In this document: piece after piece, positions 32,047-33,353 of the stretch
How positions within the stretch are numbered: position 1 is the first letter of the stretch
Layout: each line of letters begins with the position of its first letter
Source: a virus
Taxonomy: Duplodnaviria; Heunggongvirae; Uroviricota; Caudoviricetes
IMG/VR virus record: IMGVR_UViG_2734482790_000004
Reading direction: 5' to 3' (one strand)
Length of the DNA: 64,000 nucleotides
Program-made: the position numbers and the translations under genes
The notes under the pieces: model-generated
The model's database searches: none
Told to the model about the DNA's origin: nothing
Seen by the model: only the letters and a program-made list of their open reading frames with translations

Positions 32047-32237
32047 GGGAATTGAATGCCAACTGAATATGCTCGCGACAACCTTGGTCGCTATCAGACC
32101 GATGGATTAAGTGCAAAAGACTTTAACAAGGTCTTCGATCTTATCCGTAAGGAGGGGCTGAGATAAAAACCGATAATTCGGCACCAACTTTGACATGTAA
32201 CCATGAAGCACCAATTGTATTGCTCGGCGACGGTAGA

Positions 32238-33353
32238 ATGCGCCGTCTTACCCCTGTCGAATGTGAAAGGCTGCAAGGTTTTCCTGATGGACATACATTG
32301 ATCCCTACGGAAAAGCGTAAAAAAGTTTCTTCAGATGAACTGGCATACCTTCGCAAAAACTCTCCTGATTTGAACGAAGAAGAGGCTGCAATGCTTGCAG
32401 CTGACGGACCGCGTTACAAAGCGATCGGCAATAGTATGGCGATACCAGTAATGCGCTGGATTGGCGAGCGGATAACCAAGGCTGCATGTCGGCAGAATGA
32501 AGGGCGTGAAACAAAAGAGCGAAAAGTTAAACCAGCGGCAGAATTCGAACGGTCCATATTCAAATGGGCTGGTGGAAAATTTGGTGTTCTGGAACAAATC
32601 TTTCGCTATTTGCCAGAAGGGAAGCGCCTGATTGAACCTTTCGTCGGTGGTGGAGCTGTCTTCATGAATGCCGGATACCAGGAAAATCTGCTAAATGATG
32701 TGAATGCTGACCTGATTAACTTTTACAAGACTCTGCAACGCGAGGCGCATTCACTTATCACTCTGGCACATCGGTTCTTCCAGGACTACAACACCCAGGA
32801 GGGATTCCTGGCAGTACGGAATGCGTTTAACAAACAAGTCTATGATGATTTACATCGCGCAGCGGCGTTTTTGTTCCTGAACCGACATTGTTTTAACGGA
32901 TTGACGCGTTACAACCAGGCCGGTGAGTTCAATGTCGGTTATGGGAAGTATAAAACTCCGTATTTCCCATTACAGGAGATGGAAGCCTTCCTCGGTGCGG
33001 AAGGGCGTTCTGAGTTTGTATGTGGTGATTTTGCTGCGGTGATTGAAGCTGCCGGAGAAGGAGATGTCATCTTTTGCGATCCGCCGTATGAACCGCTCCC
33101 AAATACAGAGGGATTCACGAACTATTCCGGTCATGACTTTAAGTTTGAAGAGCAAAAACGCCTGGCGTCTCTGTTGACGGATGCTCATCGCCGAGGTGCA
33201 AAGGTTCTCATTACTAACAGTGGCGCGCCAAACATCAGAGAACTTTATCAGGACAGTGGCTTCAGAGTGGAACCTCTTTTTGCCAGACGTTCTGTGTCTT
33301 GTAAGGGGGACACTCGAGGTGTTGCTCATGACGTTATAGCAATATTGCTATAA
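32238..33353 (+). CDS. dmt: Dam-family N6-adenine methyltransferase with N-terminal C5-MTase motif IX/X-like extension
   Basis: Dam-like KWAGGK and DPPY; N-terminal RRLTPVECERLQGFPDGH and AIGNSMAIPVMRW resemble C5-MTase motifs IX and X; frame open from 32151 (TTG at 32190). Confidence 0.75.
   Translation: MRRLTPVECERLQGFPDGHTLIPTEKRKKVSSDELAYLRKNSPDLNEEEAAMLAADGPRYKAIGNSMAIPVMRWIGERITKAACRQNEGRETKERKVKPAAEFERSIFKWAGGKFGVLEQIFRYLPEGKRLIEPFVGGGAVFMNAGYQENLLNDVNADLINFYKTLQREAHSLITLAHRFFQDYNTQEGFLAVRNAFNKQVYDDLHRAAAFLFLNRHCFNGLTRYNQAGEFNVGYGKYKTPYFPLQEMEAFLGAEGRSEFVCGDFAAVIEAAGEGDVIFCDPPYEPLPNTEGFTNYSGHDFKFEEQKRLASLLTDAHRRGAKVLITNSGAPNIRELYQDSGFRVEPLFARRSVSCKGDTRGVAHDVIAILL

Follow-up and report, generated by a model that had tools for sequence, protein, structure and literature searches.

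Phage P1 and its relatives encode Dmt as one gene, whose product has 672 residues in P7 (AAQ07538.1) and MH422554 (AXF39191.1) and 754 residues in P1 (YP_006537.1); in all three proteins PF00145 matches the N-terminal part and PF02086 the C-terminal part. The P1 and P7 records annotate the product as a bifunctional methyltransferase that acts on the adenine of GATC and perhaps on C5 of cytosine. C5 motifs IX and X ahead of a Dam domain are the normal internal structure of P1 Dmt, a protein already annotated as bifunctional. C5-cytosine methyltransferases are also known as two-piece enzymes, and the dividing point, in natural (M.AquI) and artificially split (M.BspRI) enzymes alike, lies in the variable region that separates motif VIII from motif IX.

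The window analyzed here is a stretch of 64,000 nucleotides that, judged from its sequence, is a P1-like plasmid prophage. On its plus strand a TAA at positions 32148–32150 is followed in the same frame by an open reading frame (ORF) that runs from 32151 to a stop ending at 33353. An earlier note on this DNA had described this Dam-like ORF, open from 32151 after a stop at 32148, and both elements are present. It had offered two readings of the ORF, one as a split C5-methyltransferase's beta half, fused to Dam, the other as the 3' end of a bifunctional gene that had once been longer. Our comparison points to the second reading: the ORF (32151–33353, plus strand; 1,203 nt) comprises codons 273–672 and the stop codon of dmt, with 98.6% nucleotide identity to the dmt gene of MH422554, and it was almost certainly cut from the 5' part of dmt by an inversion of ∼11.07 kb through illegitimate recombination.

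Profile searches located the end of a C5-methyltransferase at the beginning of the ORF. The first 114 residues matched PF00145 with 31 bits (E 2.3e-7; gathering score 22), and positions 270–298 of the 324 in this profile, which represent motif IX, fell on ORF residues 25–53. Residues around YKAIGNSMAIPVMRWIGERI corresponded to positions 301–324, the motif X part, which scored weakly when scanned alone (12.1 bits, E 0.13). The NCBIfam model TIGR00675 (dcm) was matched at its positions 272–300 with 31.6 bits against a cut-off of 100.65, and PDB sequences searched by phmmer with residues 1–110 gave no match at E up to 0.01. By these profile matches, the C5-methyltransferase homology of the N-terminus exceeds chance, and the claim that the first ∼90 codons hold the TL region and motifs IX and X of a C5-methyltransferase, for which a profile search had been suggested as a check, was borne out by PF00145 and TIGR00675. 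The remnant occupies 32151–32460 (plus strand) and is made up of the last part of the variable region (TL), motif IX RRLTPVECERLQGFPDGH, an insert of ∼45 residues and motif X YKAIGNSMAIPV. A complete C5 catalytic domain, with motif I for AdoMet binding, the catalytic Cys of motif IV (PCQ) and motif VI (ENV), is not in the ORF, which has just PF00145 positions 270–324 of 324; the GTPCQ, WENVPG and QRRRRVF motifs are on another fragment (43158–44039), the product of which matched PF00145 positions 5–119 and further stretches (E 6.9e-30).

The canonical Dam domain follows the C5 part, as had been proposed. It is a complete D12-class N6-adenine methyltransferase domain (32565–33266, plus strand; residues 139–372) and matched PF02086 and TIGR00571 over nearly their full lengths (positions 1–243 of 253, E 4.4e-58, 197 bits versus 22; and positions 3–265 of 267, 254.6 bits versus a cut-off of 114.85, respectively). 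Its translation shows the AdoMet-binding glycine-rich EPFVGGGAVF and the catalytic FCDPPYEP (DPPY). Like Escherichia coli Dam and the TIGR00571 family, the C-terminal 260 residues match over the full length, with the FxGxG-like FVGGGAVF and DPPY. Unlike the host Dam equivalog (NF008152), for which the ORF scored 249.5 bits against a cut-off of 441, and unlike E. coli Dam itself, the ORF has ∼130 extra N-terminal residues that come from the C5 domain and a linker.

We compared the surroundings of the ORF with P1-type genomes. Window positions 27000–32150 are collinear with P1 NC_005856 positions 83124–77974 on the minus strand (98.3% identity) and contain pmgQ, ppp, pmgP, pmgM, pmgL and genes 26 and 25. 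The alignment to dmt starts at window position 32149 and at nucleotide 815 of the P7-type gene, and from 32149 or 32241 to 33400 the window has 95.9–98.6% nucleotide identity to the dmt genes of P1, P7 and their relatives; tRNA-Asn, tRNA-Thr and ban lie downstream of this alignment. The 5' part of dmt is found on the minus strand of 43224–47000, followed by hrdC, uhr and upfB. The alignment to P1 Dmt that had been suggested as a check thus identified the ORF as the middle and 3' end of a P1-type dmt. Domain order (C5 motifs IX and X, then Dam) and downstream neighbors (tRNA-Asn, tRNA-Thr, ban) are those of the P1, P7 and MH422554 genes. In contrast to these genes, codons 1–272 with C5 motifs I–VIII are detached, inverted and 11 kb away, the upstream neighbors are gene 26 and a gene 25 stump instead of uhr and hrdC, and the promoters LP26 and P26 stand in place of Pdmt. 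The uhr and hrdC genes remain with the 5' fragment, and of the uhr-hrdC-dmt-tRNA-Asn-tRNA-Thr context the downstream part is kept. No continuous ORF with C5 motifs I–X and Dam exists in the window. With codon 273 as its first, the ORF at 32151–33353 is part of a P1-type Dmt family member, not an intact one.

The inverted segment spans 32151–43223 (∼11.07 kb) and holds the dmt 3' fragment, tRNA-Asn, tRNA-Thr, an SPFH-domain gene, tRNA-Ile, ban, dbn, genes 5, 6, 24 and 7, and the 3' part of gene 25. Its left junction, J1 (32149–32150), is an AA common to both parental sequences, so that gene 25 reads up to 32150 and dmt from 32149; its right junction, J2 (43224–43225), is TT, the complement of the shared AA. 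The parental dmt sequence is ...GCACATGGGC AA GGAGGGGCTGAG... and the parental gene 25 sequence ...CTTATCCGT AA ACAGCAGCGTC..., compared with ...CTTATCCGT AA GGAGGGGCTGAG... at J1 and ...GCACATGGGC AA ACAGCAGCGTC... at J2 (reverse complement of the window). This four-way comparison reveals a clean reciprocal exchange with a 2-bp overlap and zero bases gained or lost, and both junctions lie in unique sequence, not in repeats. The exchange cut dmt after codon 272 (...AMAHGQ | GGAEIKTDNSAPTL...) and tail gene 25 after codon 31–32. Motif VIII (QRRRRVF, on the other fragment) and TL plus motif IX flank the dmt break, which falls in the variable region.

Three further pieces complete the picture. 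The dmt 5' part (43158–44039, minus strand) comprises codons 1–272 with C5 motifs I–VIII, followed by 21 out-of-frame gene 25 codons, and makes a 293-aa ORF whose native start behind hrdC is preserved. Gene 25 is represented by its 3' part (42101–43223, minus strand), with codons 33–405 and the stop, and by its 5' stump (32056–32166, plus strand), which encodes 36 residues from 31 native codons, a junction-spanning Lys-32 and 4 out-of-frame dmt codons before a stop. When the segment was re-inverted in silico, the reverse complement of 43224–44039 joined to 32151–33353 gave an ORF of 2,019 nt and 672 aa, which shares 666 of 672 residues with the MH422554 protein and 641 of 672 with the P7 protein. 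Likewise, 32056–32150 joined to the reverse complement of 42101–43223 gave a 405-aa gp25 identical to P1 gp25 at 404 of 405 positions. The relatives thus have the C5 domain at their N-terminus and re-inversion restores both frames, as a dmt origin predicts. The product of 43158–44039, which had been named earlier as a possible partner, proved to be the right one, being the 5' part of the same gene, and the alternative of a once-longer bifunctional gene agrees with the finding that joining 44039–43224 (minus strand) to the ORF restores a complete dmt.

These data show the following course of events. In an ancestor of the plasmid lineage, a single reciprocal inversion fused the middle of dmt to the start of tail gene 25. 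Exchange at the shared AA dinucleotide turned the Gln272 codon CAA into TAA, so that the frame only seems to open at 32151. The C5 domain now consists of two non-contiguous pieces on opposite strands and 11 kb apart, because the inversion cut dmt after codon 272, and gene 25 was broken by the same event.

The composition of the junction also accounts for the stop and for the Shine-Dalgarno (SD)-like sequence next to it. The TAA at 32148–32150 (plus strand) is made by the junction, with T from gene 25 and AA left from the dmt codon CAA (Gln272); the stop at 32148 exists because the C of this codon was replaced by the gene 25 T (compare parental dmt GGGCAAGGAGGG with CCGTAAGGAGGG in the window). 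The sequence TAAGGAGG occurs once in the window, at 32148–32155; the earlier note had the sequence right and its position, 32147–32154, one base off. It had drawn attention to a perfect SD with no ATG. This feature has no significance, because intact dmt has the GGAGG inside its coding sequence, where CAA GGA GGG spells Gln-Gly-Gly, and the TAA arose at the junction. When an ORF is open from immediately behind a stop, carries an SD-like sequence without a start and begins in the middle of a domain, a rearrangement breakpoint should be tested first. Here the apparent N-terminus is a rearrangement scar in a gene that RefSeq already flags as a pseudogene.

Candidate starts in frame are ATA 32163, TTG 32190 and ATG 32238, all three listed previously, and additionally TTG 32220 and ATG 32391. 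An SD-like sequence ahead of the TL region precedes just one of them, ATA 32163, and no canonical start with an SD was found upstream of the TL region of the 32151–33353 ORF. TTG 32190 lies within TL, and a start at ATG 32238 removes the TL region entirely. Gene callers picked ATG 32238, which gives a 371-aa product; the sequence upstream of it contains no convincing ribosome-binding site. A 387-aa product from TTG 32190 had no record among public assembly products.

We then asked how widely the inversion is found. A 401-nt probe across J1 was matched end to end in 1 of 505 matching E. coli complete-genome records, in none of 512 PLSDB plasmids and in none of 18 phage records. The only matching record is the 96.5-kb plasmid of E. 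coli GmM062 (NZ_JCANKX010000003.1). In this record PGAP annotates three pseudogenes: a “DNA adenine methylase,” incomplete with its N-terminus absent, which is exactly window 32151–33353; a “phage tail protein” with its N-terminus absent, which is the gene 25 3' part; and a “DNA cytosine methyltransferase” with its C-terminus absent, which is the dmt 5' part. The fragments are therefore already known as pseudogenes in RefSeq, and the architecture of the dmt 3' fragment is the known architecture of dmt. An exact 28-nt J1 sequence had no match in one-genome-per-species contigs or in JGI metagenome contigs, which shows the lineage to be absent from these two collections only.

The presence of the junction in just 1 of the 505 complete-genome records, with no PLSDB or phage record showing it, would be expected if a mis-join in one plasmid assembly had separated the halves of a dmt gene that is intact in the cell. 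Several results argue against such an artefact. Reciprocity between the two junctions is exact, and the sequence around both is unique. Products specific to the junctions are present in public assemblies, namely the 293-aa J2 fusion in 63 blocks, the 36-aa gene 25 stump formed at J1 in 71 blocks and the 371-aa product from ATG 32238 in 60 blocks, and these 60–71 blocks belong to independent assemblies, their sources being several SRA runs and one ENA metagenome assembly. Window 17950–46350 differs from the GmM062 plasmid record by one base, whereas window 1–18024 has only 94–98.6% identity to it. Because the inversion is common to the window and the GmM062 plasmid despite 1.4–6% divergence elsewhere, the inverted block is carried on at least two backbones. 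We therefore rejected an assembly artefact, given the junction products in many independent assemblies and the two backbones, and consider it virtually inconceivable. The carrier loci that were fetched are ∼100% identical to the window, with the same orientation in all those examined. The inversion is inherited and rare; of roughly 1,000 P1-like replicons, a single near-clonal lineage has it.

The position of the break invites comparison with the alpha and beta subunits of M.AquI, since both are divided between motif VIII and TL plus motif IX, which makes each piece similar to one of these subunits. One could imagine a functional split of this type, with the 293-aa fragment and the C-terminal fragment fused to Dam assembling in trans to give both 5mC and 6mA. 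A break at the point where known split enzymes are divided would suit it, as would the native start that the N-terminal fragment retains downstream of hrdC. Neither fragment is mutated further, an absence of decay that follows from the youth of the event, as its carriers are ∼100% identical. However, the inversion that split dmt by accident destroyed tail gene 25 as well, and the split occurs in the single near-clonal lineage. The N-terminal fragment ends in a 21-residue out-of-frame tail, and the start with an SD-like sequence ahead of TL is ATA 32163 only, with ATG 32238 dropping TL. Unlike M.AquI, a conserved gene pair in which each gene has its own translation start, this arrangement is a recent rearrangement; its pieces lie 11 kb apart on opposite strands and behind different promoters, and the beta-like piece lacks a proper start and is fused to Dam. 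A functional two-subunit enzyme is thus very unlikely.

The dmt fragments are not a naturally split C5-methyltransferase, because a recent accident in a single lineage produced the split. The earlier reading as the beta half of a split enzyme fused to Dam is not supported: the split is restricted to one near-clonal lineage, the inversion broke gene 25 as well and the ORF has no usable start with a ribosome-binding site ahead of TL. The fragment is an ordinary broken gene and not a designed beta half-Dam arrangement. It would be a long shot that the inversion accidentally made a working two-piece C5-methyltransferase, the alpha-like piece expressed from the early, C1-controlled Pdmt and the beta-like-Dam piece from the late LP26. 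If that were true, the two-piece enzyme would keep 6mA and 5mC with re-wired timing, and the re-wired methylation might help explain the occurrence of a defective, inversion-bearing P1 plasmid in dozens of sequenced isolates. A split dmt annotation in phage vB_EcoM-673R5 (ON470615.2) was considered as a natural precedent and set aside as uninformative, since the record has a split rdgC too, which points to frameshift errors.

With the locus read as a broken dmt, we considered how the inversion arose. P1 itself inverts its C segment by Cin acting at cix sites, and because the AA overlap found here equals the crossover core dinucleotide of P1 cixL and cixR, an origin at Cin quasi-sites was tested. 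An inversion programmed or mediated by a recombinase, either Cin on quasi-cix sites or another serine invertase, and possibly reversible, would explain why the exchange is exactly conservative and why AA lies in inverted orientation at both sites. The event indeed resembles the Cin/cix inversion of P1 in being conservative, in its 2-bp AA overlap and in occurring in a P1-type genome. The 12-bp flanks of the breakpoints were compared with cix half-sites, the reference being 26-bp sites resembling TTCTCTTAAACC AA GGTTTAGGATTG. The two breakpoints matched at 8 of 24 and 4 of 24 positions, compared with a mean of 7.6 of 24 over the 10,273 AA sites of the window, and 52% and 99% of AA sites, respectively, scored at least as high. 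Thus, the flanks are no more cix-like than those of random AA sites.

A tblastn search found no homologue of P1 Cin within the 64-kb window. No invertase is annotated in positions 1–48700 of the GmM062 record, where cin and the tail-fiber region are expected; the one serine-recombinase-like annotation there is a “recombinase family protein” beside a Tn3-family transposase. In GmM062 a polysaccharide-biosynthesis cluster, copies of IS5 and IS1 and an ars/Tn3-family element apparently occupy the place of the P1 cin, tail-fiber and tail-tube region. Inspection by eye detected no longer inverted homology at the breakpoints than the AA dinucleotide alone, the flanks matching at about chance level. 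The inversion has a single orientation in every carrier examined, and its endpoints, unlike those of the P1 C segment, lie inside two genes, both of which are inactivated. Since the breakpoints are not cix-like and cin was not found in the window or in GmM062 positions 1–48700, an origin by Cin on quasi-cix sites was rejected, and inversion by a recombinase of any of these kinds appears extremely improbable. We conclude that the inversion almost certainly occurred by illegitimate recombination at the 2-bp microhomology and not by the Cin invertase.

The inversion placed the dmt 3' fragment in a new transcriptional setting. Upstream of gene 26, the gene 25 stump and the dmt 3' fragment lies the late promoter LP26 (31621–31639, plus strand), whose 19 nt are identical to the annotated LP26 of P1 NC_005856. 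The baseplate gene 26 (31669–32046, plus strand; 125 aa) is intact and collinear with P1 gene 26 at ∼98% nucleotide identity. Downstream of the break, 32323–32341 (plus strand) is identical to LPdam2, a late promoter predicted inside the gene in the P7 record AF503408. A scan of 31450–33650 found no promoter-like site on the plus strand. The first terminator-like site on that strand is at 33534–33556, past the dmt stop, and none lies between LP26 and this stop.

Genes 7, 24, 6 and 5 have moved from LP26 to a position behind the early dmt operon, and gene 25 lacks its first 32 codons. In a P1 CRISPRi assay, tail genes 7, 24, 6 and 5 scored as essential, and the efficiency of plating was near 0.1 when gene 25 was knocked down (PMC10695390). 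With these four genes moved away from LP26 and gene 25 broken, the element is probably defective as a phage. The P1-like plasmid lineage is a decaying, probably non-inducible prophage.

C5-methyltransferase activity is most likely lost, because the domain is split and the remnant has no good start ahead of TL. The Dam domain is intact behind LP26, gene 26 and the gene 25 stump, and Dam could still be made in late expression from ATG 32238 or from ATG 32391. The latter forms a candidate internal start (32377–32393, plus strand) in which ATG 32391 follows GAAGAAGAGG, with GAAGAGG upstream; its predicted 320-aa product would keep motif X and the whole Dam domain. ATG 32391 is conserved in P1, P7 and MH422554, and the ON470615.2 record annotates the equivalent ATG as the start of a “DNA adenine methylase” CDS. 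We infer that this start may be used in the present lineage. A Dam-active product is plausible because the domain is intact, no terminator intervenes after LP26, LPdam2 is matched and ATG 32391 is conserved; the chances that the truncated product retains GATC-methylating activity seem roughly even.

P1 packaging requires Dam methylation of pac, and dmt is dispensable in dam-plus hosts (PMC12707154; PMC10695390). The lineage is a natural test of the Dam half of Dmt working alone. Secondary deletions were present in three fetched carriers. In SRR31273685 the deletion corresponds to window 32478–40775 and includes the Dam domain, indicating that Dam is not strictly maintained in this lineage.

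We compared the window with NZ_JCANKX010000003.1, the plasmid of E. coli GmM062 and, among complete records, the sole other carrier of the inversion junction, and found that the two are not identical. Identity was 94–98.6% over window positions 1–18024, and a single base differed between 17950 and 46350 (at 26113). The last 331 bases of the window (63670–64000) diverged completely beyond position 15834 of the GmM062 record. These data indicate that the inverted block is identical in both and that the P1-like backbones around it form a mosaic. Next to phd/doc, at window positions 19564–25567 (1621–7618 in the compared stretch L004), lies a type I restriction-modification system that looks complete and consists of hsdM, a split hsdS and hsdR.

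Foreign DNA has apparently been substituted in the GmM062 plasmid at positions 14040–36002 (stretch L008), where the P1 sim, tub, sit, baseplate and tail-fibre genes and cin are expected. The substitute DNA comprises a polysaccharide-biosynthesis cluster between IS5-like and IS1 elements, an ars operon and a Tn3-family transposon; in the window it is present only from window position ∼61848 to 63669. Because the P1 region from sim to cin has apparently been replaced, the GmM062 plasmid looks like a defective prophage. The same plasmid carries ompC at 43037–44149.

Further deletions and rearrangements were seen in other carriers of the same inversion, namely at loci L009 (ERZ27257993), L011 and L017 (both SRR31273685) and L013 (ERR8574388). 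The secondary joins, expressed in window coordinates from the alignment blocks, were 43034/30390, 32477/40776 and 34759/37104, with the blocks overlapping by 5, 5 and 13 bp at the three joins. Alignment of the carrier loci showed 43034 joined to 30390 in one rearrangement and part of the ban region missing in another; in a third, the join of 32477 to 40776 corresponds to loss of the Dam domain together with the tRNAs, ban, dbn, genes 5 and 6 and a portion of gene 24. Decay of the lineage carrying the inversion appears to be under way.

At the inversion junction 43224–43225, dmt sequence immediately ahead of the breakpoint (window 43228–43243, minus strand) places a TTG (43243) and an ATG (43231–43229) in frame with the 3′ part of tail gene 25. 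With these candidate starts supplied by dmt, the transcript of the dmt operon could therefore direct synthesis of a gp25 without its first 32 residues, although neither the TTG nor the ATG has an obvious Shine-Dalgarno sequence ahead of it.

In phage vB_EcoM-673R5 (ON470615.2; positions 1–2912 of its locus, L018), both rdgC and dmt are annotated as several pieces, the former as RdgC1 and RdgC2 and the latter as a 5mC methyltransferase, a hypothetical protein and a DNA adenine methylase. Aligned with the window, this locus shows a 1-base gap in an A-run near L018 position 1878, and the split annotation of the two genes probably reflects sequencing frameshifts rather than biology.
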